64,000 nt of DNA from an uncultured bacterium (lineage in GTDB: Bacteria > Hydrothermota > UBA3073 > NMUJ01 > CBEVQO01), in the NCBI GenBank assembly GCA_965552055.1, contig CBEVQO010000003.1, positions 206,381-270,380 of the forward strand. The letters run 5' to 3'. The position numbers and the translations under genes are program-made. The notes under the pieces are model-generated. The model had not been told where the DNA came from. It saw only the letters and a list, made by a program, of their open reading frames with translations, and did no database searches. Shown here one piece after another: positions 43,465 to 59,705 of this stretch (position 1 is its first letter; the number at the start of each line of letters is the position of its first letter).

Positions 43465-44741
43465 TGGCATATATTTGTAAAAATTGCGGATATAAAAGTA
43501 CAAAATGGCTGGGTAGATGCCCAAATTGCGGCGAATGGAATACTTTTGAAGAAGAGAAAAAAGGTATAAAAAAAGAATATAAAAAAACATCTTCATCTTT
43601 AAAAGAAGTTAAGAAAATAGAGAGGGAAAGGATAAAAACAGGAATTGACGAATTTGACAGAGTAGTTGGTGGAGGACTTGTTTCAGGAAGCTTTATACTT
43701 CTTGGAGGTATTCCTGGTATAGGCAAATCAACACTTCTCTTGCAGATTGCACAAAAGCTTGCACAAAAAGACAAAAAAGTTTTGTATATATCGGGTGAGG
43801 AATCACCGGAACAAATAAAAATGCGTGCGGATAGAATCGATGTAAATGACGAAAATATTTTGATAACAAAAGAAACTTCAATGGACGATTTAATAGAAGA
43901 AGTAAAATTTGTAAAACCTGATTTTCTAATTTGTGATTCAATTCAAACTTTAAAGGTTGAAGATATGGAGTCGCCTCCTGGTAGTGTAGCACAGGTGCGT
44001 GAGTGCGGTGCAAAGCTCCTTGATATTGCAAAAAGTTTGGGAATTACAGTGTTCGCAATCGGACATGTTACAAAAGAAGGAATAATTGCAGGACCAAAAA
44101 CACTGGAACATATGGTAGATACGGTTTTATATCTTGAAGGTGATAAAAGTCATTTATTCAGGATTTTGCGTGCTGAAAAAAATCGCTTCGGACCAACAAA
44201 TGAAATAGGATTATTTGAGATGACAGATAAAGGTATGATAGAGGTAAAGGATCCTTCACGCTTTTTCCTGCGGGATAAAAAAACAGAACCAGGTGAAGCA
44301 ATATCATGTACAGTAGAGGGAACAAGACCTTTACTTATAGAGATACAGGCATTATCAACAGAATGTAAGTTTGGCTATCCACAAAGGATAACATCCGGAT
44401 ACGATTACAACAGGTTTTCAATGCTACTGGCAGTGATAGAGAGAAATCTGGAGATATATACAGGTGATAAAAATATATTTTTGAATGTAGTTGGAGGGTT
44501 GAAGTTGCGAGAAACTGCGTGTGACCTTGCAGTTGTTATGGCTATAGTATCTGCTATTTTGAAGAAGAAAATAAAAGAAGAGACGGTATTGATAGGAGAA
44601 GTAGGGCTACTTGGTGAGATAATAGAGGTGCCGATGCTCGATAAAAGGATAAAAGAAGCACAAAGGCTTGGTTTTAAGCATTTTATAACACCCGAAAACA
44701 CAAAAACAATAAAAGAAGCATTTCAGAAGATGTTTGGATAA
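43464..44741 (+). CDS. radA: DNA repair protein RadA/Sms
   Basis: CxxC..W.G.CP.C..WNT, PGIGKST, KNRFG. Confidence 0.96.
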   Translation: MAYICKNCGYKSTKWLGRCPNCGEWNTFEEEKKGIKKEYKKTSSSLKEVKKIERERIKTGIDEFDRVVGGGLVSGSFILLGGIPGIGKSTLLLQIAQKLAQKDKKVLYISGEESPEQIKMRADRIDVNDENILITKETSMDDLIEEVKFVKPDFLICDSIQTLKVEDMESPPGSVAQVRECGAKLLDIAKSLGITVFAIGHVTKEGIIAGPKTLEHMVDTVLYLEGDKSHLFRILRAEKNRFGPTNEIGLFEMTDKGMIEVKDPSRFFLRDKKTEPGEAISCTVEGTRPLLIEIQALSTECKFGYPQRITSGYDYNRFSMLLAVIERNLEIYTGDKNIFLNVVGGLKLRETACDLAVVMAIVSAILKKKIKEETVLIGEVGLLGEIIEVPMLDKRIKEAQRLGFKHFITPENTKTIKEAFQKMFG

Positions 44742-44785
44742 ATAATTTTTAGCCCCGCCTCCGCTGTCCCCGCCTTCCCGATTAA

Positions 44786-44913
44786 GTCAGCCCACTCATA
44801 CCGCTGAAATATGTAAGCAGCAGATAAAGCCACAAACCCTGCTATAACCCACATCACCGTAATGGGCTGACATATCAACCCATATGTAATGCACTCGCTT
44901 CGCTCGTAATAAA
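44786..44913. other. GC-rich structured non-coding element
   Basis: GTCAGCCCA (44786) / TGGGCTGAC (to 44871) inverted repeat enclosing further stems; alternative hairpin 44862-44883. Confidence 0.45.
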
Positions 44914-44921
44914 AATTTCCC

Positions 44922-44948
44922 TTGACAATCCATATTTTTGCATATAAT
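44922..44948 (+). promoter_or_regulatory. promoter, leaderless
   Basis: TTGACA-15bp-TATAAT, ATG 44955 with no SD. Confidence 0.65.
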
Positions 44949-44954
44949 TTGATA

Positions 44955-45446
44955 ATGGGTAAAAGTGCAGAAGAAAAGTTCTGGGAAGCATTGAGTAGAT
45001 TGATAGAAAGACAGGAACAAAATGAGAAAGCAATAGAAAGATCGCGTGAAAGACAGGAGAAAACTGATGAGCAATTAAGAAAGATACAGAGAGAGACGCA
45101 TGAGGAATTTAAGAGAATAATTCGTGAGATGCATATATCTGACAAAAAATTAAGAGAGCGGGTAGAAGCTGTTTCTGATGGCTATGGTAGATTTGTTGAG
45201 GGGATAGTTTTTCCTTCTGCACTTGAGACATTCAGGAAAATGGGGTTTAAAATCGAAGAAGCAAGCATAAGGCAGGGAGTTTTTGATGACAATAGAAAAG
45301 TGGCAGAGGTAGATAACTGGATTGAAGCAGTTTTTAACGGCAAAAAATACATAATAGCAGGTGAAGCCAAAACAACATGCACATCCGATGTTAAACCACA
45401 TGCATCCCCTCCAAGGCACAGCATTGACTATGCTATGGCTTTTTAA
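44955..45446 (+). pseudogene. truncated coiled-coil PD-(D/E)XK-like nuclease (paralog of 50724/51444 genes)
   Basis: Near-identical to paralogs up to ...GEAKTTCTSD (nt 45390), then unrelated sequence; lacks ~60 C-terminal aa. Confidence 0.8.
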
Positions 45447-45573
45447 CTACCTATATATGAGGCACTGCTTCGCCCATATTTAAAAATTTAACACACGCAT
45501 ACCCTCGCAGCACTTGCTCGGGTGTGTCAAATACCCCGCTATCGCTTGTATTAAATCTTTAAGCACAAAACAC

Positions 45574-45600
45574 TTGACAAATCAGGTAAGGAATTATAAA
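45574..45600 (+). promoter_or_regulatory. promoter for surface-protein array
   Basis: TTGACA-15bp-TATAAA upstream of AGGAGG. Confidence 0.5.
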
Positions 45601-45606
45601 TGTTTA

Positions 45607-45633
45607 AAATAGGAGGGGGTATGAGGTGGTGTG
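45607..45633 (+). repeat. 27-nt RBS+MRWC leader repeat, copy 1 of 4 (others 46473, 55344, 57922)
   Basis: AAATAGGAGGG(G/A)GTATGAGGTGGTGTG. Confidence 0.9.
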
Positions 45634-46478
45634 TTATAATACTTGCAATTTTGTTTGCAGGATGTTATCAGCCAAAATACAGGATGGGCAAACTCGAAGA
45701 GAAACAGATAGAGCCACTAAATGCAAATGCTGTGATTAAAGTAAAAATAGAAGAGATGAAAGGAATACCCGAAGAATGGAAACCAGATATAGAGGAAGCA
45801 GTGGAGCAAAGTTTAAAGAAACTGTGGAACAATAAATTGGAACCCATGCTCGCACTCGAATGTAAATTAAAAATGAGATATGAAGAAACACCTTTTAAAG
45901 TCAAGGGTAAGATCAGATTAAAAGCATACTTAAAAACAGAAGATATGTTAGTTGATTCTTTCATAATTACTGCAAAGAAAACATCAATGAGGGAAATAGA
46001 TTTAATAAAACATCAGGGGGGAATTATCCGCAAATTATTATCGCAAGTGATAAATCAATTAAAAACGGAAATTAAGAAAAAAGAAAAAGAAATTTTAAGT
46101 AAGATAAGTCCGCCAAGTTTGTTTATGGAAATTGAATTTAAGGATGAGAACAACAATATGGTGCTGGATGCAAGTGAAGTTTGCACCCTTTATATCACAC
46201 TTATAAACAAATTAAAAAAGGCAACTGCAGGAGTAAAAGTGGGAATCGATTTGCTATCCCCAGATTATGAAGAAATGTTAGAAATATCACCACCAGTAAA
46301 CACAGGCATTTTCAAAAAATGGGAAAAGAAAATTGTAAAGCAATGGATAATGGCAGGACCTCTCATTCAATCAGGTCAATTCACCATAAGAATAAAATGC
46401 GATTATCTCGGCAAAACCATAATTTACAAAGATATGTATATCGTGGCAAGGGGTAGATTCGGCATTTATAAAAAATAG
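45621..46478 (+). CDS. putative lipoprotein with shared C-terminal Ig/CARDB-like domain (S1)
   Basis: MRWC leader, lipobox LFAGC; DENNNMVLDASE...RGRFGIYKK domain. Confidence 0.7.
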   Translation: MRWCVIILAILFAGCYQPKYRMGKLEEKQIEPLNANAVIKVKIEEMKGIPEEWKPDIEEAVEQSLKKLWNNKLEPMLALECKLKMRYEETPFKVKGKIRLKAYLKTEDMLVDSFIITAKKTSMREIDLIKHQGGIIRKLLSQVINQLKTEIKKKEKEILSKISPPSLFMEIEFKDENNNMVLDASEVCTLYITLINKLKKATAGVKVGIDLLSPDYEEMLEISPPVNTGIFKKWEKKIVKQWIMAGPLIQSGQFTIRIKCDYLGKTIIYKDMYIVARGRFGIYKK

Positions 46479-46499
46479 GAGGGAGTATGAGGTGGTGTG
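46473..46499 (+). repeat. 27-nt leader repeat copy 2
   Basis: One mismatch to copy 1; contains TAG stop of upstream gene. Confidence 0.9.
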
Positions 46500-48535
46500 T
46501 TATCATTTTTCCTTTGTCTCTGTCTGCAAAGGTGCTGACAATTGCGGTAGCACCCTTTAAGAATCTGACCCAGAACCAGCAACTCGCATGGTGCGAACAG
46601 GCATTCCAGATTCTACTGCAAACAAAACTCGGTAAACTACACACATTCAACATAAGGGAAAGAGCAGAAATACTCGCTCGAATGGCAAAATTTGAAGATA
46701 AATTCGGAACTGAAGATTTTGAGAAAAAATTAAGAGAAATGCTAACAGCAGATATTTACATATTCGGGGAATTCCTGTCACCGGATGGCGTATCCGCTAC
46801 AATAACTGCAAGAGCAACCGATAAAGATGGGAAAATTATCACAGGAATAGAAAAGCAAACATCTAACCTTCGACATGATATAACAAAAATATGTGATGAA
46901 ATAGTGGCAGAACTTCTGGCAAAATTGGATATTAAACCTACGGATGAAGAAAAAATTATGATGAAAAAAGCAGTAACAGAATCAACAGATGCATTCGTAG
47001 AACTAATCATAGGATTGACATTGCACGAAGGAATAGGAGTTGAGAAAAATATAAGAGAAGCGATAAATCACTACAAAAATGCAATAAAGATAGACCCCAA
47101 TTATCTATCTGCCTATTATAATCTGGGAAATGCGTATCTTGAAATCGGAGAATACAAATCGGCAATTGCTCAATATCAAAAAATATTGAGTGAAACGCCA
47201 AGAGACCCCGATGCACTGAATAACATGGGTATGGCTTATCATCATATAGGAGAATATCAAAAAGCAATACAATGTTATAAAAAAGCACTGGAATTTAGAG
47301 AAGACTCGGATATATGTTTCAATATGGCACAGGCATATTATGATATGGGAGATTACAATAAAGCACTAATGTTGTTTGAAGAAATAAGAGATGAATTTGA
47401 AGAAAAAGAAGATTTAGAATATCAGATAGCACTTTGCTATCACAAAACAGGTGATTTACAAAAAGCAACTATGATTTTGAATTCTTTGCTGTTGTCAAAT
47501 CCACAAAAACCTGCACGCCTGCATAGAGTACTCGCAACGATTTATGTAGAACAGGGGAAATATCCACTTGCTGAAGAAGAATTAAAAGAAGCGATAAAAA
47601 TAGAACCGGACAGTATAAAAAATTACAAGGCACTTGCCGACCTTTATATAAAAATGGGAAGATATGGAGCAGCGCTCACAATTTTTGAAGAAATAGTTAA
47701 GAAAAAGCCAGACGAAAGCTATCCACATTATGCACTGGGACAATTATATCAGGATATGGGAGAAAAAGAAAAAGCACTAAAAGAATTTGAGACAGCGATA
47801 AATCTGTCGGAAAGCGGTAAAAATAAACTTGGCAAAAAAGAGCTGGCAGATGCATATCACAGAGCAGGCAAAATTTATATAGAAAAAGGGGAGATGAAAA
47901 AGGCAAAAGAATATCTTTTTAAAGCATACAGGATAAATCCTGATGAAAAAATAACTTATGACCTTGCTCTTTTATGCTATAAGATGGGTAATTTCAACAG
48001 TGCCTTGAGGTATTTTGAAGAATGTGCGGATTATTTTAAAAATCCGGATATTTATTATTTGATGGGAGTTTGTGCAATGAAACTTGGCTTTAATCCCGAG
48101 AAATATTTTGATAAAGTTCTTGAGTTAAATCCTCATCATCCCGATGTTAATTATTTTATGGGTGTGGAATATATGAAAAGGGGTGATTTTTATGGTGCTC
48201 GTAAATATTTTTTGAGGGCAATAGGAGGAGGGCTGACAAAGGAACTCCTTGCAGATGCCTATTACAATCTTGGTATTTGTTATGAGCATAACAGTTTTAA
48301 CGAAAGATTTGGTGAGGGATACGATTGGGAATCCGCAGTTGATGCATTTAAGAAAGCAATATCATATAGACAAGATTTCTTTGATGCTTATTACAATCTT
48401 GGCTATCTGTATGTGCAAAGAGAGATGTGGCATGATGCGCTTTTAATTTTTGAAAAAAGTTTACCCTATGCACCACAGGATAAGAAAAAAGAATTAGAAG
48501 AAAAAATCGAAGCATTAAAAAGGAGGGTAAGATGA
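46487..48535 (+). CDS. secreted TPR protein with N-terminal CsgG/TolB-N-like domain (S2)
   Basis: TIAVAPF.N motif; more than 10 TPR motifs (AYYNLG, ALNNMG). Confidence 0.8.
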   Translation: MRWCVIIFPLSLSAKVLTIAVAPFKNLTQNQQLAWCEQAFQILLQTKLGKLHTFNIRERAEILARMAKFEDKFGTEDFEKKLREMLTADIYIFGEFLSPDGVSATITARATDKDGKIITGIEKQTSNLRHDITKICDEIVAELLAKLDIKPTDEEKIMMKKAVTESTDAFVELIIGLTLHEGIGVEKNIREAINHYKNAIKIDPNYLSAYYNLGNAYLEIGEYKSAIAQYQKILSETPRDPDALNNMGMAYHHIGEYQKAIQCYKKALEFREDSDICFNMAQAYYDMGDYNKALMLFEEIRDEFEEKEDLEYQIALCYHKTGDLQKATMILNSLLLSNPQKPARLHRVLATIYVEQGKYPLAEEELKEAIKIEPDSIKNYKALADLYIKMGRYGAALTIFEEIVKKKPDESYPHYALGQLYQDMGEKEKALKEFETAINLSESGKNKLGKKELADAYHRAGKIYIEKGEMKKAKEYLFKAYRINPDEKITYDLALLCYKMGNFNSALRYFEECADYFKNPDIYYLMGVCAMKLGFNPEKYFDKVLELNPHHPDVNYFMGVEYMKRGDFYGARKYFLRAIGGGLTKELLADAYYNLGICYEHNSFNERFGEGYDWESAVDAFKKAISYRQDFFDAYYNLGYLYVQREMWHDALLIFEKSLPYAPQDKKKELEEKIEALKRRVR

Positions 48536-48615
48536 AGGGAAAAATTTGTGGGGTGGTGCTCGGCGTATTAACCGCAGTAGCCACGCACTCACAGCAACCT
48601 CGATGGTACTTCTAT
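48514..48615 (+). repeat. 102-bp identical direct repeat (RBS + 28-codon leader), copy 1
   Basis: Identical to 49782-49883 by eye. Confidence 0.92.
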
Positions 48616-49782
48616 CAATCATTCCAAGGTACATTTAAAAGATACTTGGTTGAATATAATGGATGTGATTATTGGGATTGGGGATATTGGACATATCAGT
48701 CCTTTTCTTTAAATTTTATTGTAAAGAATTTTGGTTTTAACTTTCCATTATTCTACTGGGAGCACTGGAAATGGTTTAATTCTGGTTGGTCAGAATTTAC
48801 TTCCAAATCTCTATTTCTAAGAAAACTAAGTTTAAATGTGTATTCAACGGATGAGATGTTAAGAGAACCTTTTGATAATTTCTTCATATTAACAGGATAT
48901 ATGGATATAGATTTAAAAGAAGATAGGTATTGGAAAGGCATCAGAATTAATTATTTTCCGAAGAAAGAGATAAAATTAGCAACAAATTTCAAATTCCTGC
49001 GAGCAGATACTTATAATTTTAATTTTCAAACTTATTTATTGAAACCTTTCTATAAAATAGAAGCGATGTTTTCCCTTAATGAACTTGGTAAAAGTATTGG
49101 CATAAATTTGAGAATAGGGAAAAATCTTCATACATTCATTTTGTCCGAGCTTTATTATGTATTCTCAGGAGATAAAAGAAATGAGTATTTTATTGAATTG
49201 GGAGGCACTATAGCAGAATATTATAAAAAATATAACATGGGCATTTATGGCTGTTTGTATAAATATCCATTTAAAATAGAAGGAAAATGTGGAATAGAAA
49301 AATATTTAGAAAAAAACTGGGATGAATTCCAATATTTTTCCTATTATGTTCAAGTTAGCGTAAGCGGGTATTGGGGAAAGGTTTTGGATAGAAAAGTGAG
49401 AAAGTTAAAAGAATATGTGGAACAAATTTATATTTATCCAACATTGGTGGACGAAGATGGGGATGGCAAATTGGAAGCAGATGAAAGTTGTTATATTGAA
49501 GCGAAGTTGATTAATAAATTAGATAAATTAATAAGAAATCTAAAAGTAGAAGTAGAAGTGATAAGCCCAGATTATAAAGACCTTGTTAAATTCCCAAGTG
49601 TAAAAATAAACAGAATCGAAGGATGGGGTAAGAAAAAGTTAAAGATACCAATTCGATATAGTCCTTTCATTCACACAGGCACATTGGAAATTAATATAAG
49701 ATGTTATAAAGGAAAAGTCAAATTGGGTGAGAAACGCATGCTTATATATGTAATGGGTGCATCAGATATTTTTAAAAGATAA
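48532..49782 (+). CDS. putative outer-membrane protein: aromatic-rich barrel-like region + shared C-terminal domain (S3)
   Basis: Signal peptide; Y/W/F-rich core; DEDGDGKLEADE...MGASDIFKR. Confidence 0.65.
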   Translation: MKGKICGVVLGVLTAVATHSQQPRWYFYQSFQGTFKRYLVEYNGCDYWDWGYWTYQSFSLNFIVKNFGFNFPLFYWEHWKWFNSGWSEFTSKSLFLRKLSLNVYSTDEMLREPFDNFFILTGYMDIDLKEDRYWKGIRINYFPKKEIKLATNFKFLRADTYNFNFQTYLLKPFYKIEAMFSLNELGKSIGINLRIGKNLHTFILSELYYVFSGDKRNEYFIELGGTIAEYYKKYNMGIYGCLYKYPFKIEGKCGIEKYLEKNWDEFQYFSYYVQVSVSGYWGKVLDRKVRKLKEYVEQIYIYPTLVDEDGDGKLEADESCYIEAKLINKLDKLIRNLKVEVEVISPDYKDLVKFPSVKINRIEGWGKKKLKIPIRYSPFIHTGTLEINIRCYKGKVKLGEKRMLIYVMGASDIFKR

Positions 49783-49883
49783 TTAAAAAGGAGGGTAAGA
49801 TGAAGGGAAAAATTTGTGGGGTGGTGCTCGGCGTATTAACCGCAGTAGCCACGCACTCACAGCAACCTCGATGGTACTTCTAT
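49782..49883 (+). repeat. 102-bp identical direct repeat, copy 2
   Basis: Identical to 48514-48615. Confidence 0.92.
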
Positions 49884-50718
49884 TTGGGAAAAGTGGGAGC
49901 GGGAGTTGGATGGGGGTATAGCTACGACTCTGACTTGGGATCGTATTGGTCACCTTTTAATATCCACATTGGTGGTCCAGAGATTGGTTTCTTTAAAGGA
50001 AAATTGGGATTAGGCTTAGGCACCCTAGAACTATACTGGATAGGAAAAAATGAAGCGGGATGTGGTTTATTCGTGCCAGTGAAATTCTTTTATACGCAAC
50101 TTTTAAAAGGAAACTTGATCGTCTATGAAACAAGTATAGGTATTCCTGTAGGTGGATTAATCAACTTAAAAGGAGCGATCAGATATGTTTTTGTACCCTT
50201 TCCGTTAGAGACGAACTGGCACATAGGCTGTTATTATTTTCAAATGGAGTGGTGGGATGAGTGGGAAGTATGGGGCTTTTCAACCGCCTTGAATTTAACT
50301 ATCGGGGCAGGTTGGTGGTTCAAAAAATTTCCTTGGGAAAGAAAAGCCCCAACCCAATCAACTCGTCCTTGACATCAATTTTGTAGATGAGGATAAAGAT
50401 GGCAAACTTGAGCCAGGTGATAGAGCTTACCTCAAGGTGAATGTCACAAACAAACTCAGAAAATCATCACCTTCCGTAAAACTCGTGGTAGATGTATTAT
50501 CACAGGATTACAAAGATGAAGTCGAATTCGGTAAAGTAAAAACAAAAAAGATAAAAGGATGGGAAATACAAACCTATCAGATACCCATAAGGGTAAGTCC
50601 ATTCATCCATACAGGTCAGCTACACATAAAAGTAAAAGCACTATTCGGCAAAAAAGTAATAGCAGAAAGAGAATTACTAATACTCGTAATGGGCAAATCC
50701 GAAATATACAAAAGATAA
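49800..50718 (+). pseudogene. putative outer-membrane protein split by a +1 frameshift near 50322-50340 (S4)
   Basis: ORF 49800-50372 stops; +1 frame reads EKPQPNQLVLDINFVDEDKDGKLEPGD...MGKSEIYKR, the shared C-terminal domain. Confidence 0.8.
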
Positions 50719-50723
50719 TCTGA

Positions 50724-52232: not shown

Positions 52233-52237
52233 CACTG

Positions 52238-52264: not shown

Positions 52265-52276
52265 GTAAGTATTTAC

Positions 52277-52303
52277 TTGACAAATCTAAAAATCCGCTAA
52301 AAT
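52277..52303 (+). promoter_or_regulatory. promoter (divergent pair)
   Basis: TTGACA-15bp-TAAAAT. Confidence 0.6.
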
Positions 52304-52317
52304 AATCAAGGGGTGTT

Positions 52318-53178
52318 ATGAAGATTGAACTTACAAAAGAACAGGTGATAAAAATAATAGAAGAAGAACTACCGAAGATAATAGAGCGTCATCCAGAGGT
52401 GAAAGCAAAATTGGTAGAAGTGCTGGAAGAGAAAATGGCAACAAAAGAAGATATAAAAATGCTGATAGAACAAATCGAAAAGAATCGCCAGGAATCAAAC
52501 AAAAGATTCGAACAGCTGATAAAAGAAATGAACAAACGCTTCGAAGAAATAAATCAACGATTCGAAGAAATGCGAGAGGATACTAATAAGAGATTTGAAG
52601 AAACTAATGAAAGATTCGAGCAACTGATAAAAGAAATGAACAAACGCTTCGAAGAGGTAAATCGACGATTTGAAGAAATGCGAAAAGATACAGATAAAAG
52701 ATTTGAAGAAATTAGAAAAGAGTTTAATGAGAGATTCGAGCAACTTACAAAGGGGATGAGGGATGGATTTAAAAAATTAAGCGATACCATATCTGCAGTG
52801 GGTTCAAGATGGAGTATATTCTCGGAGCGCGCCTTCAGAGATGCGATGTCGGATTTGTTGAAAAAACTCGGACTTGATAAAGCAGAAAAATGGGTAGAAC
52901 TCGACGAAGAAGGAATTGTATTCGGACATCCATCAATGGTAGAAGTTGATCTGCTTATAAAAAATAATGTGCATTATCTTATTGAAGTAAAAAGCAGTGT
53001 TTCAGAAGGTGATGCCATAAAATTGAAAAATATAGGTGAACTTTACGAGAAAAAGACAAAAGTAAAGCCACAACTTGTTTTCGTTACACCATTTATGAGA
53101 GAAAAAGCAAAAATTCTCTGTAAAAAATATGGAATAAAATACTATGTGGGTATAGTAGAGCCAGAAGAGGAGGGCTGA
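52318..53178 (+). CDS. DUF3782/DUF1626-like coiled-coil PD-(D/E)XK nuclease protein
   Basis: ATKEDI, NKRFEE repeats (108-bp unit), VG.RW..SE.AFR, EVDLLI...IEVKSS. Confidence 0.75.
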   Translation: MKIELTKEQVIKIIEEELPKIIERHPEVKAKLVEVLEEKMATKEDIKMLIEQIEKNRQESNKRFEQLIKEMNKRFEEINQRFEEMREDTNKRFEETNERFEQLIKEMNKRFEEVNRRFEEMRKDTDKRFEEIRKEFNERFEQLTKGMRDGFKKLSDTISAVGSRWSIFSERAFRDAMSDLLKKLGLDKAEKWVELDEEGIVFGHPSMVEVDLLIKNNVHYLIEVKSSVSEGDAIKLKNIGELYEKKTKVKPQLVFVTPFMREKAKILCKKYGIKYYVGIVEPEEEG

Positions 53179-54611
53179 TGCTAATTTTTTTAATATTTGC
53201 AACTCAAATAAGATTGCCTTATCCTGTGAACACATCTGCAAACGAGATGACGCCAGTGATTTCTGCCGATGGAAAGAGCATTTATTTTACATCGGATAGA
53301 AAAGGCGGAATGGGGATGGAAGATGTATGGGTATCACGGCTTATAGGTGGCAAATGGAGAGAACCTGTGAATCTTTCGCACATAAATACTCCTTTTTCGG
53401 ATGGGGCTGTATCCGTTACCGCCGACGAAAGACAGATGTATTTTGCGAGCTCAGGTAGGGCTGGCTTCGGTCAATCCGACATCTTCGTATGCTACAAAAA
53501 AGATAGAGGATGGTCAGCGCCTCAAAATCTGGGCTACCCCGTAAATACTCCTGGATGGGAATCACAACCATCAATTTCTGCTGACGGCAGATACCTTTAT
53601 TTCATCTCAACAAGACCGGGAGGATTTGGTGGCACGGATATATGGGTAAGTAAGCGCACAGAAAAAGGCTGGTCAGAGCCAGAGAATCTTGGTCCTGGTG
53701 TGAACTCGCCTTACGATGAGCAATCGCCTTTTATAGCACCAGATGGAATAACCCTTTATTTTGCATCAAACAGACCCGGTGGCTTCGGCGGATATGATAT
53801 TTATCGTGCAGTGAAAACAAAAGATGGCTTCACACAGGCACAAAATCTCGGTCCAGAAATCAACACACCTTACGACGATATATGCTTCTCTGTACCAGGT
53901 AGGGGCGACATCATATACATCGCAAGAGAAGAAAAAGGCAATTACGATATCTTTTACATGAAGTTACCAGAGAAAATGAGAATCGAGCGGGCAGTAACCA
54001 TTGTAGCAGGTAAATTAACAGACAAAGAAACAGGCAAGCCAATAAAGGGTGGAAAAGTAACGATAATAAATCTCGAAACAGGTGAAAAGTTTGAAACAGT
54101 TACAGATGAATCGGGCAAATATAAATTTGCATTGCCAGCAGGTGGAAGATATTCTGTATCAATTCAGGCAGATGGATATTTGTTTACATCAACTTATCTT
54201 GATTTGAAAGATAAAAAGAGTTACGAAGAATTAATGGAGAAAAGTGTTCTCGCACCTATAAAGAAGGGTGAGAAGATAATTTTGCGTAATATTTTCTTTG
54301 ATTTCGATTCTTATGAGCTTAAGCCGGAGTCAAAGTATGAGCTTGACCGTCTTATAAGGATAATGAAGGAGCACAAAAGTATGGTGGTGGAGATAGCCGG
54401 TCATACAGATGACATAGGCACAGAAGAATATAATCTCAGGTTATCCCAGAAGCGTGCGGAAGCTGTTAAGCAATATCTTGTTGAGCATGGCATAGAGCCA
54501 CAAAGGATAATAGCAAAGGGCTACGGCAAGAGCCAGCCACTGATAGCCGATACAACAGAAGAAGCACGCGCACTAAATCGCCGTGTAGAATTCAAAATTT
54601 TAAAATATTGA
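53178..54611 (+). CDS. PD40 propeller + carboxypeptidase-regulatory-like + OmpA C-terminal protein (PorE-like, S5)
   Basis: P.ISADG..LYF.S.R.GG.G..DIW repeats; IFFDFDS, GHTD, NLRLSQKRA, NRRVEF. Confidence 0.88.
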   Translation: MLIFLIFATQIRLPYPVNTSANEMTPVISADGKSIYFTSDRKGGMGMEDVWVSRLIGGKWREPVNLSHINTPFSDGAVSVTADERQMYFASSGRAGFGQSDIFVCYKKDRGWSAPQNLGYPVNTPGWESQPSISADGRYLYFISTRPGGFGGTDIWVSKRTEKGWSEPENLGPGVNSPYDEQSPFIAPDGITLYFASNRPGGFGGYDIYRAVKTKDGFTQAQNLGPEINTPYDDICFSVPGRGDIIYIAREEKGNYDIFYMKLPEKMRIERAVTIVAGKLTDKETGKPIKGGKVTIINLETGEKFETVTDESGKYKFALPAGGRYSVSIQADGYLFTSTYLDLKDKKSYEELMEKSVLAPIKKGEKIILRNIFFDFDSYELKPESKYELDRLIRIMKEHKSMVVEIAGHTDDIGTEEYNLRLSQKRAEAVKQYLVEHGIEPQRIIAKGYGKSQPLIADTTEEARALNRRVEFKILKY

Positions 54612-54696
54612 CTTGACAGAACAGATAAAGGAGTAAAATATGAATGATGAAAGTGTATAAGTTTATATCAAAGATAGAAAAAGACGGAACGATTAA
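54249..54696 (+). repeat. 448-bp identical direct repeat copy 1 (OmpA domain + promoter + antitoxin 5' end)
   Basis: Matches 56627-57074, offset 2378 bp. Confidence 0.92.
54613..54639 (+). promoter_or_regulatory. TA operon promoter (duplicated at 56991-57017)
   Basis: TTGACA-15bp-TAAAAT, ATG within 5-8 nt. Confidence 0.6.
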
Positions 54697-54859
54697 AATT
54701 CCAGATGAGATGAAAAATTTAATCGAACATGAAGTTGAAATTACAATAATAGACCGTAAAGACGAAGATGTAATTGAAAAAACGAAAGGTACCATTAAAA
54801 ATTTATCGGTGGAGATTATTAAAAAGATTGCAGAAAGTGAGGACTATTGCGGATATTAA
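54647..54859 (+). CDS. putative antitoxin (AbrB-like N-terminus)
   Basis: Small; I.KDG.I.IP motif; overlaps the PIN gene. Confidence 0.65.
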   Translation: MKVYKFISKIEKDGTIKIPDEMKNLIEHEVEITIIDRKDEDVIEKTKGTIKNLSVEIIKKIAESEDYCGY

Positions 54860-55349
54860 TGCAATTCCATCAGGCATCCAAGTTTTTATTGACGCCAATA
54901 TCTTTATTTATCATTTTGCAGGAATTTCTCAGCAATGTACTGACTTTCTAAGACGAATTCAACGCCAAGAAATTAAAGGAGTAATCTCTGTTCTTACCGT
55001 GGCAGAATTAATTCACCGAAGAATGATAGCAGAAGCAATAGAAAAAGGGTTAGTTACTTTGAAAAATGCGGTGAAAAAGATGAAAGAAAATCCGGAGATT
55101 GTAAAGCGATTGACACAATATTCCGAAGATATAAGAATTATTCTTTCTTTACCCATTGAAATTGAAAATTTAACAAAGGATGATGTCCTTTTGAGTGCAG
55201 AAATACGCCGAAAGTACGGTTTACTAACGAATGATTCTTTAAATTTGGCTTTAATGAAACGCCTTGGTATTAGAAATATTGCTACAAGAGATATCGATTT
55301 TGAAAGAGTGAAGGAGATAAATGTTTGGAAACCTACTGATATAAAATAG
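54837..55349 (+). CDS. PIN-domain (VapC-like) toxin
   Basis: VFIDANIF, AEL, LLTNDS, IATRD.DF; start uncertain. Confidence 0.88.
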   Translation: MRTIADINAIPSGIQVFIDANIFIYHFAGISQQCTDFLRRIQRQEIKGVISVLTVAELIHRRMIAEAIEKGLVTLKNAVKKMKENPEIVKRLTQYSEDIRIILSLPIEIENLTKDDVLLSAEIRRKYGLLTNDSLNLALMKRLGIRNIATRDIDFERVKEINVWKPTDIK

Positions 55350-55370
55350 GAGGGGGTATGAGGTGGTGTG
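55344..55370 (+). repeat. 27-nt leader repeat copy 3
   Basis: Contains the TAG stop of the PIN gene. Confidence 0.9.
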
Positions 55371-56989
55371 CTTTGATGTTTATATTAAATGCACTAAAGT
55401 TTCATTATGAGCCGATTTATAGGATTACGCCTATAAAAATCCCTGCTTCCTTGCAGATAATAGTAAAGAAATTCTGCGAAAACTATGAAACAAAGGGATG
55501 GACAAAAAAGTATAAGAATTTGAAGGACGAAATAAAACAAACAGTAGAAGCTGACCTTAAGAAAACGGTCTTTAAAAGAGTTTCTCCTCGAGGATTTTTA
55601 TTATGTAATTTAATTTTTGATACAATATATTTCAAAGGAAATGAAATGCATCTCGGTGTAGGTTCTAAAGGTGCAGATATAAAGGCAGGATGTGTATTAA
55701 ATGCTACAATAAAAATGTTTAACCAAACTATTATTTGCACATCAATCAAAAGGGAAATAAGTTTTAGAAAAATCTTATCCCCCACAGAGAATTTATTTAA
55801 TGTTTTAATTACAGACAATCCAGTAGAAATTGTTGTTAGAGGCGCACTCGACGAATTAAAATGGATAATAGAAAAAAATAGGATAAAAATTTCAAAATTT
55901 TCTTTAAAAGAAGGAGAAGAAGATTATTTGAAAGAAGATTCACATTTAATAGATTTAACAGGACAAAGTATCGCTATATTAAAAGCAGGCACGAAGATAA
56001 AAATCATTAAATTATCCGATAAATTCGTCTATGTTAATTCACCAAAAGGCAAAGGATATGTCGAGAGCAAAAATATAAGTCCTTTTAGAGTAGATAAAAC
56101 TCCACCTGTGATAAGATTATTTGAGAGAAAAATTGAAGATGCTTATCTTTACCTTAAAGGAATCGTGCTTGATGATAACAAAGTAAAGGAAGTAAAGATT
56201 GACACTATTACAGTTCCAAAGTCTACATTTGAAGTAAGTTCTGGGATTTATGAAGATGTATATCCTTTTGAATATAGGTGCTTTGTTTTTCCCACAAAAA
56301 AGACCTTTACTATTATAGCAGAAGATACCGCCGGTAATAAAAGCGAATTAACATTTTATCTATCTGAAATAATTCAAAAGAAAACAGGCAGAATTATAGA
56401 TAAGAATACACAAAAACCTATCTCAAATGCCAAAATAGTGATACGGAATCTTGAAACGGGAGAAAAATTCGTAACTTATACAAATGAAAAAGGGGAATAT
56501 TCTCTTTCGCTTCCTCCGGGTGGTAAATACTCTGTGTCTATTGAAGCCAAAGGATATGTTTTTAGTTCGTCTTTCGTTGATTTAAAAGATAAGAAATCAT
56601 ATTATAATTTAATGGAAGATATCGCACTCGCACCTATAAAGAAGGGTGAGAAGATAATTTTGCGTAATATTTTCTTTGATTTCGATTCTTATGAGCTTAA
56701 GCCGGAGTCAAAGTATGAGCTTGACCGTCTTATAAGGATAATGAAGGAGCACAAAAGTATGGTGGTGGAGATAGCCGGTCATACAGATGACATAGGCACA
56801 GAAGAATATAATCTCAGGTTATCCCAGAAGCGTGCGGAAGCTGTTAAGCAATATCTTGTTGAGCATGGCATAGAGCCACAAAGGATAATAGCAAAGGGCT
56901 ACGGCAAGAGCCAGCCACTGATAGCCGATACAACAGAAGAAGCACGCGCACTAAATCGCCGTGTAGAATTCAAAATTTTAAAATATTGA
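55358..56989 (+). CDS. secreted multidomain protein: SH3-like, Ig-like, carboxypeptidase-regulatory-like, OmpA (S6)
   Basis: MRWC leader; LKAGTKIKI...KGYV, DKTPPVI...AEDTAGN; OmpA domain identical to S5. Confidence 0.75.
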   Translation: MRWCALMFILNALKFHYEPIYRITPIKIPASLQIIVKKFCENYETKGWTKKYKNLKDEIKQTVEADLKKTVFKRVSPRGFLLCNLIFDTIYFKGNEMHLGVGSKGADIKAGCVLNATIKMFNQTIICTSIKREISFRKILSPTENLFNVLITDNPVEIVVRGALDELKWIIEKNRIKISKFSLKEGEEDYLKEDSHLIDLTGQSIAILKAGTKIKIIKLSDKFVYVNSPKGKGYVESKNISPFRVDKTPPVIRLFERKIEDAYLYLKGIVLDDNKVKEVKIDTITVPKSTFEVSSGIYEDVYPFEYRCFVFPTKKTFTIIAEDTAGNKSELTFYLSEIIQKKTGRIIDKNTQKPISNAKIVIRNLETGEKFVTYTNEKGEYSLSLPPGGKYSVSIEAKGYVFSSSFVDLKDKKSYYNLMEDIALAPIKKGEKIILRNIFFDFDSYELKPESKYELDRLIRIMKEHKSMVVEIAGHTDDIGTEEYNLRLSQKRAEAVKQYLVEHGIEPQRIIAKGYGKSQPLIADTTEEARALNRRVEFKILKY

Positions 56990-57074
56990 CTTGACAGAAC
57001 AGATAAAGGAGTAAAATATGAATGATGAAAGTGTATAAGTTTATATCAAAGATAGAAAAAGACGGAACGATTAA
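56627..57074 (+). repeat. 448-bp identical direct repeat copy 2
   Basis: Matches 54249-54696. Confidence 0.92.
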
Positions 57075-57375
57075 GGCGGTGTACGACGAAGCACTGGCAG
57101 AAATAAAAAGAATGATTATGGATATTTTTAAAGAGGAAAAAGTTACCGTTTTTTTATTTGGCTCCCGCGCTACAAATAGAGCTTCGCCCTTTTCGGATAT
57201 TGACATTGGAATAATATCCACAAATAAAGATACCGATAAATTGCTTGCATTGTTAAGAGAAAGAATAGAGAATTCTAATATTCCTTATAAAGTGGATGTG
57301 GTTAACCTGCAGAATACTTCTGAAAAGTTCAGAAAAGAAGCACTGAAGGGGGCTAAAATTCTATGGAAAAATTAA
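57025..57375 (+). CDS. minimal nucleotidyltransferase (MNT) antitoxin with N-terminus shared with the upstream antitoxin
   Basis: LFGSRA....SDIDIG, VDVV. Confidence 0.85.
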   Translation: MKVYKFISKIEKDGTIKAVYDEALAEIKRMIMDIFKEEKVTVFLFGSRATNRASPFSDIDIGIISTNKDTDKLLALLRERIENSNIPYKVDVVNLQNTSEKFRKEALKGAKILWKN

Positions 57376-57755
57376 AAAGAAAAATAGAGGAAACAAAGCG
57401 CGCTTTGAAAACATTGGAAGAAATTTTAAATGAACCTTATTCAGTAATAGTGAGAGACGCAACAATACAAAGATTTGAATACACTTTTGAAGTATTTTGG
57501 AAAACAATTAGAGAATACTTGCGAGAACATGAGGGCATAGTCCGCAATTCCCCAAAATCATGTTTTAGAGAAGCGATGAATGTGGGACTTATGGATGAAG
57601 AGCAAACAATAAAATGTTTAGAAATGACCGACGATAGGAATCTTACCTCGCATACTTATATCGAAGAAGTTGCAGAAAGAATTTATGGAAAGATAAAAGA
57701 ATACTACTCATTAATGACCGCTATCGTGAATTTGATTTCTGAAAAAGTCTTTTGA
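57363..57755 (+). CDS. HEPN-superfamily nucleotidyltransferase substrate-binding protein (HI0074-like)
   Basis: RDATIQRFEYTFE, SPK.CFRE, RNLTSH (Rx4H). Confidence 0.88.
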   Translation: MEKLKRKIEETKRALKTLEEILNEPYSVIVRDATIQRFEYTFEVFWKTIREYLREHEGIVRNSPKSCFREAMNVGLMDEEQTIKCLEMTDDRNLTSHTYIEEVAERIYGKIKEYYSLMTAIVNLISEKVF

Positions 57756-57789
57756 TTGATTTTAATTAGCAAGAAGTAAAATTTTACCC

Positions 57790-57831
57790 TTGACATAGCA
57801 GGTAATTGATTACAATAAAGGATGAAAAGTG
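57790..57831 (+). pseudogene. relic promoter + first codons of a coiled-coil nuclease paralog
   Basis: ttgacatagcaggtaattgattacaataaaggatgaaaagtg resembles 58969 ttgacataacagagtatcgattacaataaaagatgaagagtg. Confidence 0.6.
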
Positions 57832-57921
57832 ATGCTAAAAGAGAAAGAGTGGGGATATGTGATTCCACTTGACCTTAAGAAGGAATATGGGAGTAAGGCT
57901 ACCCGTAAAAATAAAAGTAAG

Positions 57922-57948
57922 AAATAGGAGGGGGTATGAGGTGGTGTG
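57922..57948 (+). repeat. 27-nt leader repeat copy 4
   Basis: Same core sequence. Confidence 0.9.
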
Positions 57949-58958
57949 CTTTAATTTTGATAGGAGGCACGCTGTGGGGAGAGGTTAGAATTGGGCTTGC
58001 AGGAGGAACACTGCCAACAAGTTCTATACCATTCGTGGGTAAAAAGGTGAAATATGTTGAATATTGGCGCTTTGGGGAATCATGGACTTCTTATGTGTTA
58101 AAACTCGAATATGCAAAGTGGATGAAGGATTATGCTGTAAGAGCAGGAATAAAGGGCTTTAAATGGGGAGGACCAGGGGGTGATGATGTTTGCATTTATA
58201 CTTTACAAGGTTGGTTTTATCCCTATTTTACACTTGCACCAATTCCTGTTTATATTGGGATTGAGAAGCCACTGACTTTGAACTCATCATTTCAGGCAAA
58301 CTTCGAAGCATGCTTCTGGTGTTTAGGAGATGTCGATAGGTACTCTGCTAATCCTTACTCTTATTACGAATTTACTCTTGGCTGGCATTATTATCTCGGC
58401 AAAATTTCCCCTAAATTTTCAATAGGAGTTGATTTCTCACTTAATCTCGGCATGCGTGCTTACTATTATAAGTGGAAGTGGTGGGAATACGATGAAGGAT
58501 GGTTTTATACATATTTCGTCTCTGCGGGAATTGAGTTACCTATGATGAGATTCTCCCCGGCAAAGATTCTCACGGTGCAAGAAAAACCCCAACTATCACT
58601 CGAATTATTATTTGAAGACCCGAACAACAATGGCAAACTTGATGCAGAGGAAACAGGATATATTGTGTGTAAAATAACAAATCTGAAAAAGAGAAAGACA
58701 GCAGGGGTAAAGATAAAATGCCGGCTTTTAACAAAAGAATTTGAAGAAGAAATTGATATGGGTAAGCCAAAACCTTCCCGCATACCATATTTCAAAAAAT
58801 GGGAAAAGAAAATTGTGAAAATACCCGTAACAGGTGCACCACATCTACATACAGGTCAGATAACGGTAAAAGTGCAATGCATATACCTAAACAAAGTAAT
58901 AGCAGAAAGAGAACTTTTCATAATAACAAGAGGAAAATCAGACATCTATAAATATTAA
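57936..58958 (+). CDS. putative outer-membrane protein: barrel-like region + shared C-terminal domain (S7)
   Basis: MRWC leader; aromatic-rich core; DPNNNGKLDAEE...RGKSDIYKY. Confidence 0.65.
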   Translation: MRWCALILIGGTLWGEVRIGLAGGTLPTSSIPFVGKKVKYVEYWRFGESWTSYVLKLEYAKWMKDYAVRAGIKGFKWGGPGGDDVCIYTLQGWFYPYFTLAPIPVYIGIEKPLTLNSSFQANFEACFWCLGDVDRYSANPYSYYEFTLGWHYYLGKISPKFSIGVDFSLNLGMRAYYYKWKWWEYDEGWFYTYFVSAGIELPMMRFSPAKILTVQEKPQLSLELLFEDPNNNGKLDAEETGYIVCKITNLKKRKTAGVKIKCRLLTKEFEEEIDMGKPKPSRIPYFKKWEKKIVKIPVTGAPHLHTGQITVKVQCIYLNKVIAERELFIITRGKSDIYKY

Positions 58959-58968
58959 AAACAAATTA

Positions 58969-58995
58969 TTGACATAACAGAGTATCGATTACAAT
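58969..58995 (+). promoter_or_regulatory. promoter, leaderless
   Basis: TTGACA-15bp-TACAAT, ATG 5 nt downstream. Confidence 0.65.
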
Positions 58996-59000
58996 AAAAG

Positions 59001-59687
59001 ATGAAGAGTGCGGAAGAAAAATTCTGGGAAGCCCTTCAGAGATTAATTGAAAGACAGGAACAAACAGAAAAAGAAATAAGAGAATTGCGAGAATTACAAA
59101 AACAGACAGAAGAGGCAATAAAACATTTAAGTGAAGAAAATAAAAAGACAAGCAAAGAAGTGGAAAAAATGAGCGAAGAAGTAAAAAAGACAAGTGAATC
59201 GCTTCGCAAACTTGATAATCTTGTTGCTGATTTGGCAAAAAATGTGGGAGGATTAAACAATGCTTTTGGTAAGATTCCGGAGGCATTGAGTCAGCCACAA
59301 ATTGAGGAAGTGTTTGAGAAAAGAGGCTTTAATGTTTTAAAAATGATGCCAGATTTATGGGCAAAGCATAATAATAAGAGAAAAGAAGTTGATATGATAA
59401 TTGTTGCTCGTAAAGATGGGAAAAACTATGTGATTGTGGTTGAAACACAGGTGCAATTCAAATCAAAAAAAGAGATAGACGAACACATAAAATTCTGGAA
59501 AGAAGATTTTAAAAAATTCTTCCCCGAATATAAAAATTACGATGTTATAGGATGCGTGTGTGCTTTGAGATTTGGCAGAGGAGTTGACACCTATGCTATC
59601 CGTCAGGGCTTATTCTGTATGAAGCCGGTAAAAGGCATAATGGACATAATAAATCCGCCCGATTTTAAATTTAAAAAATTAAGTTAA
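59001..59687 (+). CDS. coiled-coil + divergent PD-(D/E)XK-like domain protein
   Basis: Same KSAEEKFWEAL..LIERQEQ start; EVDMI...VETQ. Confidence 0.65.
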   Translation: MKSAEEKFWEALQRLIERQEQTEKEIRELRELQKQTEEAIKHLSEENKKTSKEVEKMSEEVKKTSESLRKLDNLVADLAKNVGGLNNAFGKIPEALSQPQIEEVFEKRGFNVLKMMPDLWAKHNNKRKEVDMIIVARKDGKNYVIVVETQVQFKSKKEIDEHIKFWKEDFKKFFPEYKNYDVIGCVCALRFGRGVDTYAIRQGLFCMKPVKGIMDIINPPDFKFKKLS

Positions 59688-59705
59688 ATATCAATGGAGG
59701 GAGAG

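Follow-up and report, generated by a model that had tools for sequence, protein, structure and literature searches.

Similar envelope-protein genes between radA and hypB of an uncultured vent bacterium, with direct repeats at the borders of gene units

The radA-hypB interval of an uncultured vent bacterium is a cluster of look-alike envelope-protein genes between two housekeeping genes (Table 1). The genome is a metagenome-assembled one of 2.2 Mb in 15 contigs, and the window analyzed here is a stretch of 64,000 nt. A preliminary description made from the sequence listed seven secreted or outer-membrane genes (S1-S7) interspersed with five stalked PD-(D/E)XK nuclease paralogs (N1-N5) and two toxin-antitoxin (TA) pairs. 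The ORF map and family scans recovered all seven S genes, and the nuclease paralogs and TA pairs were all found in the window. The reported lack of integrases, transposases and reverse transcriptases also holds, as a family scan of the 66 window ORFs of at least 90 aa yielded no matches to these families (18 ORFs and the 71-aa antitoxin ORF at E <= 0.01, 48 ORFs at E <= 1e-5). The underlying observation is confirmed as real, and its interpretation is partly supported. Direct repeats of three sets mark the borders of gene units in the island, and two of these units are missing from related-strain contigs.

Table 1. Genes and repeats of the radA-hypB island, in window coordinates.
Feature	Position	Strand	Description
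N1 fragment	44922-45446	+	Truncated coiled-coil PD-(D/E)XK paralog; BLASTP 76% to N2 over 175 aa
SD-MRWC motif, copy a	45596-45640	+	Stop/SD/ATG AGG TGG TGT; repeat family D5
SD-MRWC motif, further copies	46462-46506, 55333-55377, 57911-57955		Repeat family D5
S1	45621-46478	+	Predicted lipoprotein; MRWC start, lipobox LFAGC, C-terminal C-domain
S2	46487-48535	+	MRWC start, TPR repeats; Pfam TPR_1 E 7.7e-63
102-nt direct repeat	48514-48615 = 49782-49883	+	Perfect, 100% identity; MKGK leader and 18 nt upstream
S3	48532-49782	+	MKGK leader, unique 300-aa body, C-domain
S4	49800-50718	+	MKGK leader and body 49800-50372; C-domain in +1 frame, open 50338-50718
N2	50724-51443	-	Stalked PD-(D/E)XK paralog, tandem with N3
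N3	51444-52235	-	Stalked PD-(D/E)XK paralog, tandem with N2
N4	52318-53178	+	DUF3782 and PDDEXK_10; Pfam 71 and 65 bits, above cut-offs
S5	53178-54611	+	PD40 x4 (propeller), CarboxypepD_reg, OmpA-like end; PorE/CHU_0125-like
448-nt direct repeat, copies A/B	54249-54696 = 56627-57074	+	Perfect
Antitoxin-like ORF	54644-54859	+	71 aa; without family
PIN-domain gene	54774-55349	+	Pfam PIN E 2.7e-15
S6	55358-56989	+	MRWC start, unique N part, CarboxypepD_reg, OmpA-like end
MNT-type nucleotidyltransferase	57022-57375	+	First 18 codons are those of the antitoxin ORF
HI0074/HEPN-type partner	57363-57755	+	Overlaps MNT gene
N-family promoter/start relic	57790-57831	+	Upstream of S7; repeat D9, TTGACA-N15-TACAAT
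S7	57936-58958	+	MRWC start, predicted outer-membrane beta-barrel-like N domain, C-domain
N5	59001-59687	+	Stalked paralog; D...E-T-Q replaces E-x-K

The C-domain attributed to S1, S3, S4 and S7 was recovered by both BLASTP and HMM searches. The frame change in S4 reflects a gene that is broken or an assembly error of one base. Pairwise protein identities among C-domains are 25-48% (BLASTP, E 1e-12 to 1e-25), and the HMM finds six proteins genome-wide, four of them in the island. An Ig-like fold is only a lead. DNA similarity is limited to patches of 30 and 105 nt, and with almost zero shared DNA identity the C-domains are unusable at present as handles between paralogs. The likeness of the C-domains reflects old paralogy, and the identical DNA tracts are fresh. 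The middle regions of the S genes, described earlier as not alignable, are indeed so by BLASTP and shallow profile comparison, with two exceptions. The CarboxypepD_reg parts of S5 and S6 align at about 70% nucleotide identity, and the N-termini of S1 and S6 show a weak BLASTP match (28%, E 8e-4). The identical OmpA anchor proposed for S5 and S6 stands as far as identity is concerned, with the final 121 codons being the same, but not as a surface anchor. As in its family, the OmpA-like domain of the PorE-like S5 and S6 would bind peptidoglycan in the periplasm, which leaves it no role in surface anchoring.

The MKGK leader assigned to S3 and S4 corresponds to a perfect 102-nt repeat, which begins 18 nt upstream of the ATG and spans 28 codons. 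No exchange at this repeat was seen in related-strain contigs. The 448-nt repeat covers the OmpA-like end, 85 nt beyond the stop codon, a promoter-like site (TTGACA-N15-TAAAAT at 54613 in copy A) and 18 codons of the next gene. Its left border falls within continuing S5/S6 homology (~70% identity), and the right border is abrupt with no identity beyond it, so plain gene conversion fails to account for how the tract arose. The genes downstream of the two copies belong to different putative TA pairs. The first resembles type II VapBC in having a small ORF followed by a PIN gene, with the small ORF here being without family. The second resembles type VII MntA/HepT, with a nucleotidyltransferase followed by an overlapping HI0074/HEPN-type gene, and the MNT protein scores 52.7 bits with the MntA model, under the cut-off of 60. 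Unlike in VapBC and MntA/HepT, the MNT gene here appears to begin with a promoter and 18 codons taken from the antitoxin of the other pair. We assume that these codons are native to the antitoxin because of a putative AbrB-like motif, and because matches of the MNT protein to the MntA and Polbeta models begin only at its residues 34-41. Family and homologue searches found no homologue of the antitoxin ORF.

The MRWC leader is present on S1, S2, S6 and S7 as described. The MRWC sequence ATGAGGTGGTGTG occurs four times in the 2.2-Mb genome, always within the island. Upstream, the motif consists of an SD context that is common throughout the genome (GGAGGGGGTATG with 22 and AAATAGGAGG with 31 copies), and the leader is just four codons after the genome's common ribosome-binding site. 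Function might have kept the motif identical, as a signal for translation start or export that co-regulated envelope genes have in common, in which case the deletion junction at this motif would be incidental short-repeat slippage. Such conservation would be consistent with the frequency of both motif halves and with the S1/S6 N-terminal homology, which extends past the leader, so that the MRWC starts may be old paralogous ends. It also fits the ordinary leader (MKLWILLL) of P0002, which is more distantly related to the S7 N domain. However, four genes with otherwise unalignable bodies agree at 13 of 13 nt, synonymous sites among them, the motif has no Rfam family and no evident structure, and conservation by function would leave the 448-nt and 102-nt tracts unexplained. 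We consider conservation by function distinctly improbable.

Related strains differ from the window at the repeats. The strain evidence consists of short assembled contigs from other vent metagenomes, in which an assembler can mis-join the 448-nt repeat, and the JGI contig L009 may share its sampling site with a Logan run. S1 is missing in two runs of different studies, with joints 45605->46471 in X2 (1037-nt contig) and 45609->46486 in X1, and the junction is the MRWC/SD motif. The two motif copies at the joint share no 31-mer, hence a k-mer graph should not create it. At the 448-nt repeat, position 54248 is followed directly by 56627 in record 4 of X1 (2162 nt), which continues to 58185, and L009 (3296 nt) has the order S5, one repeat copy, MNT, HEPN, S7. 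In one Logan contig and L009, S5 thus leads through a single tract copy to MNT-HEPN-S7, without the 2378 nt of antitoxin remainder, PIN gene and S6 5' part. The L009 repeat copy has two differences from both window copies, which match each other fully. Record 25 of X4 (702 nt) bridges S6-unique sequence, repeat and MNT in one contig, and in record 18 of X3 (601 nt) the repeat runs into the antitoxin ORF. Together, the X1, L009, X4 and X3 contigs show that all four flanks of the 448-nt repeat exist in nature. L009 is 99-100% identical to the window per 100 nt across 57075-57999, and over the S7 N domain (58000-58499), where indels occur, identity falls to 77-95%. The S7 proteins are 70% identical with the same first 27 residues, and a related strain carries a divergent S7 allele with two C-domains. 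Structural differences in the radA-hypB interval coincide with repeats, indicating that the island is truly variable there. The repeats and chimeric joints could instead be artefacts of a metagenome-assembled genome, as the 15-contig assembly with several nuclease-family copies at contig ends might suggest. Yet the S6-repeat-MNT (X4) and repeat-antitoxin (X3) connections and the chimeric MNT start (L009) are reproduced in independent assemblies, and the 102-nt and 448-nt tracts are internal to a 270-kb contig, making artefacts hardly credible.

We suggest, with a probability of roughly 0.6, that the interval represents an island of paralogous envelope genes that differs between strains, and that its units are gained or lost by general homologous or short-homology recombination. 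Such recombination most likely suffices without a dedicated system. S5 and S6 would be old paralogs, and in a recent one-sided event the S6 end and MNT start might have been overwritten with the S5 end, the antitoxin promoter and 18 codons. Of the two borders of this event, only the left one lies in homologous DNA. A crossover between the 448-nt copies could then remove the 2378-nt unit or re-insert it as a circle. The 29-45-nt start motif would likewise permit S1 loss or gain. The in-frame MNT fusion might persist because cells need the antitoxin expressed.

Alternatively, the repeats might be insertion scars. The S1 and antitoxin-PIN-S6' units would have arrived from another strain and duplicated their target on entry, either by long target duplication or by Campbell-type entry of a repeat-carrying circle, and strains lacking the units would represent the empty site. 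The layout X-repeat-insert-repeat-Y and the single repeat copy in other strains match this scenario, and the identical window copies next to a differing L009 copy fit a duplication that took place after the strains had split. Circularised, the 2378-nt unit would contain S6, the antitoxin and PIN as complete genes, three in all. Inserts below 20 kb with flanking repeats above 30 bp and no mobility genes are on record (Furuta, Abe, Kobayashi 2010; PMC2853133). That report likewise describes direct-repeat-flanked units, with one repeat copy where a related genome lacks the insert. Those cases involve restriction-modification cargo and repeats of about 45-49 bp, whereas the island carries envelope and TA genes, one of its repeats spans 448 nt starting within homologous coding DNA, and the event could have run in either direction. 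Against insertion, an ancestral single copy would imply a native MNT start, and the late start of the MntA and Polbeta models fits poorly with this. On its left side the 448-nt tract begins within S5/S6 homology, as expected of a crossover rather than of an arbitrary target, and S1 is without a near-identical donor in the same genome. Insertion scars are rather unlikely.

The preliminary description had proposed a new, recombinase-free system, in which constant ends serve as homology handles for swapping variable surface domains among the seven genes and TA modules penalise segment loss. In such a system the stalked nucleases might introduce the breaks. Strain junctions do fall at shared parts, the S7 leader is identical next to a divergent body, and nuclease paralogs occupy both island ends and the middle. 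However, the C-domain DNA is too diverged to provide handles, and the common end of S5 and S6 would be periplasmic. No middle swapped between paralogs was seen in the strain contigs, which hold only presence/absence of units and allele divergence or replacement. The PIN pair itself lies inside the unit absent from other strains, so loss carries no visible penalty. The genome encodes RecA, so a lack of local recombinases calls for no new system; three tyrosine recombinase genes are all on other contigs, and the family scans found no recombinase family in the window. Local repeats that form pairs with 96% identity or more are all direct in the genome (18/18), which suggests a general process. 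The nuclease family occupies at least 19 loci over 8 contigs, adjoining unrelated genes, hence the paralogs are not particular to the island. A dedicated mix-and-match system is very unlikely.

General recombination among paralogs has a close precedent in Helicobacter pylori babA/babB/babC, where intragenomic homologous recombination creates chimeric genes and strain-variable locus occupancy (PMC4552749). Like the island genes, the bab genes are envelope paralogs that resemble each other in their 5' and 3' regions and differ in between, and no dedicated recombinase takes part. In contrast to bab, the island paralogs lie in tandem at one locus, the 3' domains have diverged too far to be exchanged today, and repeat-tract phase variation was not found in the island. 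The island shows whole-unit loss or gain and one diverged allele rather than reciprocal chimeras.

The stalked, predicted nuclease genes show no tie to island rearrangements. N4 belongs with the coiled-coil-stalked PD-(D/E)XK endonuclease family (DUF3782 and PDDEXK_10; Hartmann et al.), as it alone passes both Pfam models. N2, N3 and N5 are below the cut-offs, and they and N1 are linked to N4 by BLASTP. The N2 and N3 proteins are 85% identical, contain 63-nt coiled-coil repeats (repeat families D1 and D2) and carry D...E-x-K as read from the translations. N1 has a TTGACA-N15-TATAAT promoter-like site of its own at 44922, and its DNA similarity to N2/N3 stops at 45390. N4 has such a site at 52277, and its stop overlaps the S5 start. 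N5 ends 7 nt upstream of the hypB start, and its promoter/start at 58969-59010 matches the N-family relic at 83%. The stalked nuclease and TA genes might be independent selfish residents, with the S genes using their promoters. Over 44000-60500, none of the seven TTGACA-N15 promoter-like sites directly precedes an S gene; all precede nuclease-family or TA genes, and two sit within the 448-nt repeat copies.

The island of envelope-protein genes between radA and hypB varies between strains, and the observation behind the preliminary description of this locus is real. The variation has probably been made by ordinary recombination, a reading to which we assign a probability of about 60%, and a new recombination system is not called for. 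The island opens with the N1 fragment, a truncated paralog of stalked PD-(D/E)XK nucleases, followed by the envelope-protein genes S1, S2, S3 and S4, the nuclease paralogs N2 and N3 on the opposite strand, N4, S5, a small ORF with a PIN gene, S6, an MNT/HEPN-type pair, S7 and N5. All elements of the preliminary description are present. A cell-wall/division cluster, dnaB, mlaEFD and radA lie upstream, hypB and a PDZ-cyclase gene lie downstream, and G+C content is flat over the island. The source genome comprises 2.2 Mb in 15 contigs, with the window at 206381-270380 of contig C3, and the 41 genomes searched included no close relative and no other member of its family. Among five order- or class-level relatives, radA identity is 51-56%, and hypB was found in one of the five, on a different contig.

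Strain differences were visible in public metagenomes. Parts of the stretch occur in 11 of 12 public runs listed, and the contigs of four (X1 to X4) were aligned to the island. A metagenome scan for the MRWC motif, the shared start of S1, S2, S6 and S7, returned one 3296-nt JGI contig of a related strain (L009). The strain evidence consists of short contigs, some at low depth (5-15), and island parts uncovered in a run were not counted unless a contig joined across. Forms without S1 are present in X1 and X2, which come from different studies, with the joints at the MRWC motif. As the two motif copies have no 31-mer in common, such a joint should not arise falsely from a k-mer graph. A second unit of 2378 nt, made of the antitoxin remainder, the PIN gene and the 5' part of S6, is missing from an X1 contig. 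L009 independently carries S5, a single copy of the 448-nt repeat that bounds this unit, MNT with the same 18-codon start, HEPN and S7. The arrangement of the window also exists in nature, as an X4 contig (record 25) bridges S6-unique sequence, repeat and MNT, and an X3 contig (record 18) leads from the repeat to the antitoxin ORF. Between 57075 and about 58000, L009 matches the window at 99-100% identity, which falls to 77-95% per 100 nt, with indels, in the S7 N domain. The two S7 proteins are 70% identical, with the same first 27 residues, patches of variation and an 11-residue insertion. The S7 of L009 carries a second copy of the C-domain (the C-terminal domain shared by S1, S3, S4 and S7), and identity returns to 95% at the start of the last copy, for which 95 nt could be compared. 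The repeats coincide with strain differences, and S7 combines an invariant leader with a body that varies, both in line with the earlier proposal. The exchange between paralogs that had also been proposed was seen in none of the short strain contigs, which show loss or gain of units and a diverged S7 allele instead. A joint of 45390 to 50900 on opposite strands (X2, X4) was considered as an inversion between the N1 fragment and N2, but it could equally stem from N2 contigs mapping to both arms and was not counted. Joints with 20-28-letter sides at high depth were taken as TPR or coiled-coil genes of other organisms and dropped.

Positions of features in the window (plain numbers), on contigs of the source genome (C) and at other loci (L)
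Feature	Position	Detail
radA end	44741	
hypB start	59694	
Joint without S1, X2 record 10	45470-45605 then 46471-47371	1037 nt
Joint without S1, X1 record 3	45389-45609 then from 46486	
Joint without 2378-nt unit, X1 record 4	54248 to 56627	2162 nt
448-nt perfect direct repeat	54249-54696 = 56627-57074	
TTGACA-N15-TAnnnT sites	44922, 52277, 54613-54639, 56991-57017, 57790, 58969	
TTGACA-N15-TAnnnT site	52264	minus strand
S4 frame change	near 50320-50345	+1
N4 coiled-coil region, 108 nt of which X1 lacks	52492-52740	108 nt
N4 stop overlapping S5 start	53175-53178	
N5 repeat expansion, X2, X3, X4	59142-59194	31 further letters and 53-nt step back
N5 end before hypB start	59687-59694	7 nt
837-aa protein	20491-23004	
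PorV-like gene	24766-25770	
1003-aa C-domain protein	C5:95700-98711	L007 223-3234
Bacteroidota C-domain relatives	L037 5189-7306; L039 3-2210	705-735 aa
Three tandem stalked-nuclease paralogs	C2:372985-375124	L030 5983-8128
Ku and ATP-dependent DNA ligase genes	L030 8209-9887	end-joining pair
Direct local repeat pairs (examples)	C12:5982-10897; C2:349407-351599; C1:219981/225134	

The shared parts of the island are of two kinds, old domain paralogy and three sets of fresh direct repeats. The old set comprises the C-domain, CarboxypepD_reg and possibly the N termini of S1 and S6. The C-domains share 25-48% identity at the protein level and almost no DNA identity, and thus cannot pair at the DNA level as the homology handles they had been taken for. 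The middles of the S genes gave no BLASTP or profile match between paralogs, and the ends of S3/S4 and S5/S6 are conserved, which agrees with the pattern described earlier. S3 and S4 share 102 identical nt at their 5' ends, and their C-domains are 48% identical. Their common MKGK leader is a perfect repeat that begins 18 nt 5' of the start codon, and the adjoining DNA is unalignable. The 448-nt repeat includes the last 121 codons of S5/S6 and continues across a 32-nt spacer into the next gene, whose first 18 codons it contains. To its left the DNA is about 70% identical, and to its right similarity ends at once. Both the 448-nt and the 102-nt runs are therefore sharp-edged identical tracts within diverged paralogs, as expected of conversion tracts. 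The MRWC leader is shared as described, but it is much smaller than a leader, with only ATGAGGTGGTGTG plus a few bases being special. This motif has four copies in the genome, all in the island. The A-rich/GGAGGGGG stretch 5' of it is the usual ribosome-binding context of the genome, and its halves occur in 22 and 31 copies (GGAGGGGGTATG, n=22; AAATAGGAGG, n=31). This points to a ribosome-binding context that is unusually long and uniform, often with the TAG stop of the upstream gene inside.

Two of the three sets of fresh direct repeats are the junctions of presence/absence forms, as general recombination acting on direct repeats would produce. The genome has a RecA gene, and its local repeat pairs (<20 kb apart, >=96% identity) are all direct (18 of 18, with 0 inverted). 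The 66 ORFs of the window gave no match to Phage_integrase, resolvase, transposase or RT families, so the earlier statement that integrase, transposase and RT are missing holds. Genome-wide, three Phage_integrase genes were detected on contigs C6, C7 and C9, and none on the contig of the island. The unit-end repeats are direct and consist of coding sequence and ribosome-binding site; short structured or inverted recombination sites were not found at the unit ends, and no Rfam family matched at E <= 0.1 over 43000-61000.

The 448-nt tract appears to stem from a one-sided event, since S5/S6 homology continues across its left border while the DNA at its right border is unrelated. Such an event would have placed the antitoxin's promoter-like site (TTGACA-N15-TAAAAT), ribosome site and 18 codons before MNT, in frame. 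Only in-frame MNT products would be expected to survive if, as we infer, the HEPN-type partner needs its antidote. The pair itself matches HI0074/HEPN-MNT pairs, with TIGR01987 at 81.3 bits (cut-off 55.8), Polbeta at E 2.8e-16 and a 13-nt gene overlap; the MntA score was 52.7 bits, below the cut-off of 60. For the 71-aa antitoxin ORF of the PIN pair, searches of 272 genomes from the phylum, of Pfam and of PDB sequences gave no match. Unit-less strains could represent empty sites of an insertion with long target duplication, or they could derive from a two-copy form by deletion, and there are observations in favour of each. The two window copies of the 448-nt repeat are identical to each other and L009 differs from both at two sites, which favours a young duplication and hence insertion. 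The extra 18-residue start of MNT favours deletion from the two-copy form instead. Toxin-antitoxin (TA) pairs had been suggested to penalise the loss of segments, but the PIN pair is itself dispensable and goes missing with the 2378-nt unit.

Variation of this kind in envelope genes is commonly explained by pressure from phages or predators. The present locus belongs among the known types of recombination-diversified envelope loci. It documents envelope genes that vary among co-existing strains by repeat-bounded gain and loss and by allele replacement, in an uncultured vent lineage without close sequenced relatives. It also presents a TA pair whose antitoxin gene would now take its promoter and first codons from another pair. 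The closest parallel for paralogs is the bab family of Helicobacter pylori, as far as outlined in PMC4552749, and the island likewise has shared ends with different middles and identical, sharp-bordered tracts; exchange of middles, as outlined there, was not seen in the short contigs. For insertion with long target duplication, the closest parallel lies in the events summarised in PMC2853133. By the features given in that summary, the island units are inserts of <20 kb with direct repeats of >30 bp, a single copy at the empty site and no mobility gene. The S1 unit measures 865-876 nt with 35-45-nt repeats, the other 2378 nt with the 448-nt repeat, and empty-site forms are found in X1, X2 and L009. 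The island differs from shufflon- or integron-type cassette systems in that neither a dedicated recombinase nor structured or inverted sites were found at the locus.

The stalked nucleases had been named as part of the candidate system, but the family is a genome-wide resident, with at least 19 loci on eight contigs, several at contig ends. N4 exceeds the Pfam cut-offs for both DUF3782 and PDDEXK_10 (71.0 and 65.2 bits), a combination that corresponds to the "coiled-coil-stalked prokaryotic endonucleases" as outlined by Hartmann et al. 2016 (PMC4786415). N5 reaches 21.2 bits for DUF3782, below the cut-off of 24.4, and N2 and N3 have no Pfam match and are tied to N4 by BLASTP (E 1e-5 to 3e-7). 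By these similarities, N2, N3 and N5 are classed as diverged relatives of N4. Stalk lengths of N4 and N5 vary among samples, by a missing part in X1 and a repeat expansion in X2, X3 and X4. Neighbours outside the island include glycosyltransferases, Ku with DNA ligase, PIN and MNT/HEPN genes, and a Pfam scan of 107 neighbouring ORFs at the other loci gave neither a transposase nor an integrase. At one locus, three tandem paralogs stand directly 5' of the genes for Ku and an ATP-dependent DNA ligase.

Two stalked nuclease genes of the island run right up to their downstream neighbours, N4 overlapping the start of S5 and N5 stopping 7 nt short of hypB, so the downstream ribosome site must lie in the last nuclease codons. 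Over 44000-60500, we found seven strong TTGACA-N15-TAnnnT promoter-like sites, all with the 15-nt spacer. These precede the N1 fragment, N3, N4, N5, a relic 5' of S7 and the two TA pairs; two of the seven are within the 448-nt repeat, and none stands directly 5' of an S gene. With all seven before nuclease or TA genes, the S genes are probably transcribed from these promoters. A standard scan did no better than shuffles (62 versus 51.8 promoter-like and 9 versus 9.7 terminator-like hits). For the unstudied nuclease family, the context added is that its promoters stand before neighbouring genes. Alternatively, the island may act as a hot spot of cassette exchange, where strains trade whole envelope-gene units and the stalked nucleases make the initiating DNA breaks. 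The traded units would begin at the stop/ribosome-site/MRWC junction or carry a TA promoter, and nuclease genes flank and divide the island and would feed promoters into the S genes. We consider this reading improbable. If true, it would provide the first function for this multi-copy family.

S5 resembles PorE/CHU_0125-type proteins (PD40 propeller, CarboxypepD_reg, OmpA-like end), and S6 has the last two parts. OmpA_C-like domains bind peptidoglycan in the periplasm. The OmpA-like end of S5 and S6 would accordingly be periplasmic rather than the surface anchor assumed in the preliminary description. The S7 N domain matches, at 0.95, ESM Atlas clusters titled "outer membrane protein beta-barrel", which we treat as a lead. 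An S7 homologue search returned one relative besides S7, matching the N domain only, and the AF2 model of S7 from single sequence had a mean pLDDT of 32. For the C-domain, an Ig-like fold is likewise a lead, with CARDB-type leads below 0.9 and a designed Ig domain as the best PDB profile match (E 6e-4). Inverse autotransporters of the intimin/invasin type are alike at the level of architecture only, and no autotransporter barrel is among the Pfam families listed, up to E 10, for S1, S3, S7 and a 1003-aa protein encoded elsewhere in the genome. S4 shows a +1 frame change between body and C-domain, which could be either a broken gene or an assembly error; contigs of the four runs do not span the spot.

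The C-domain was also considered as a type IX sorting domain and ruled out, since none of the 78 genome-wide matches to Por_Secre_tail (TIGR04183) falls within the island (C3:251121-266070). The genome does have a type IX secretion system, with a SprA-like gene and with 75 of these matches above the cut-off. Against longer proteins, the C-domain profile recovered nothing but proteins of the window itself, and the first 40 residues of S3 as query gave no match. Genome-wide, the C-domain HMM found six proteins, four in the island, a 220-aa protein on C1 and the 1003-aa protein on C5. The latter is the largest of the family in the genome and combines a barrel-like N part with seven tandem C-domains. 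Distant C-domain relatives occur in Bacteroidota MAGs; their C-terminal part looks caspase-like by eye, and one also has a barrel-like N part. Elsewhere in the window, we noted a PorV-like gene as well as an 837-aa protein that contains several CarboxypepD_reg-type domains.
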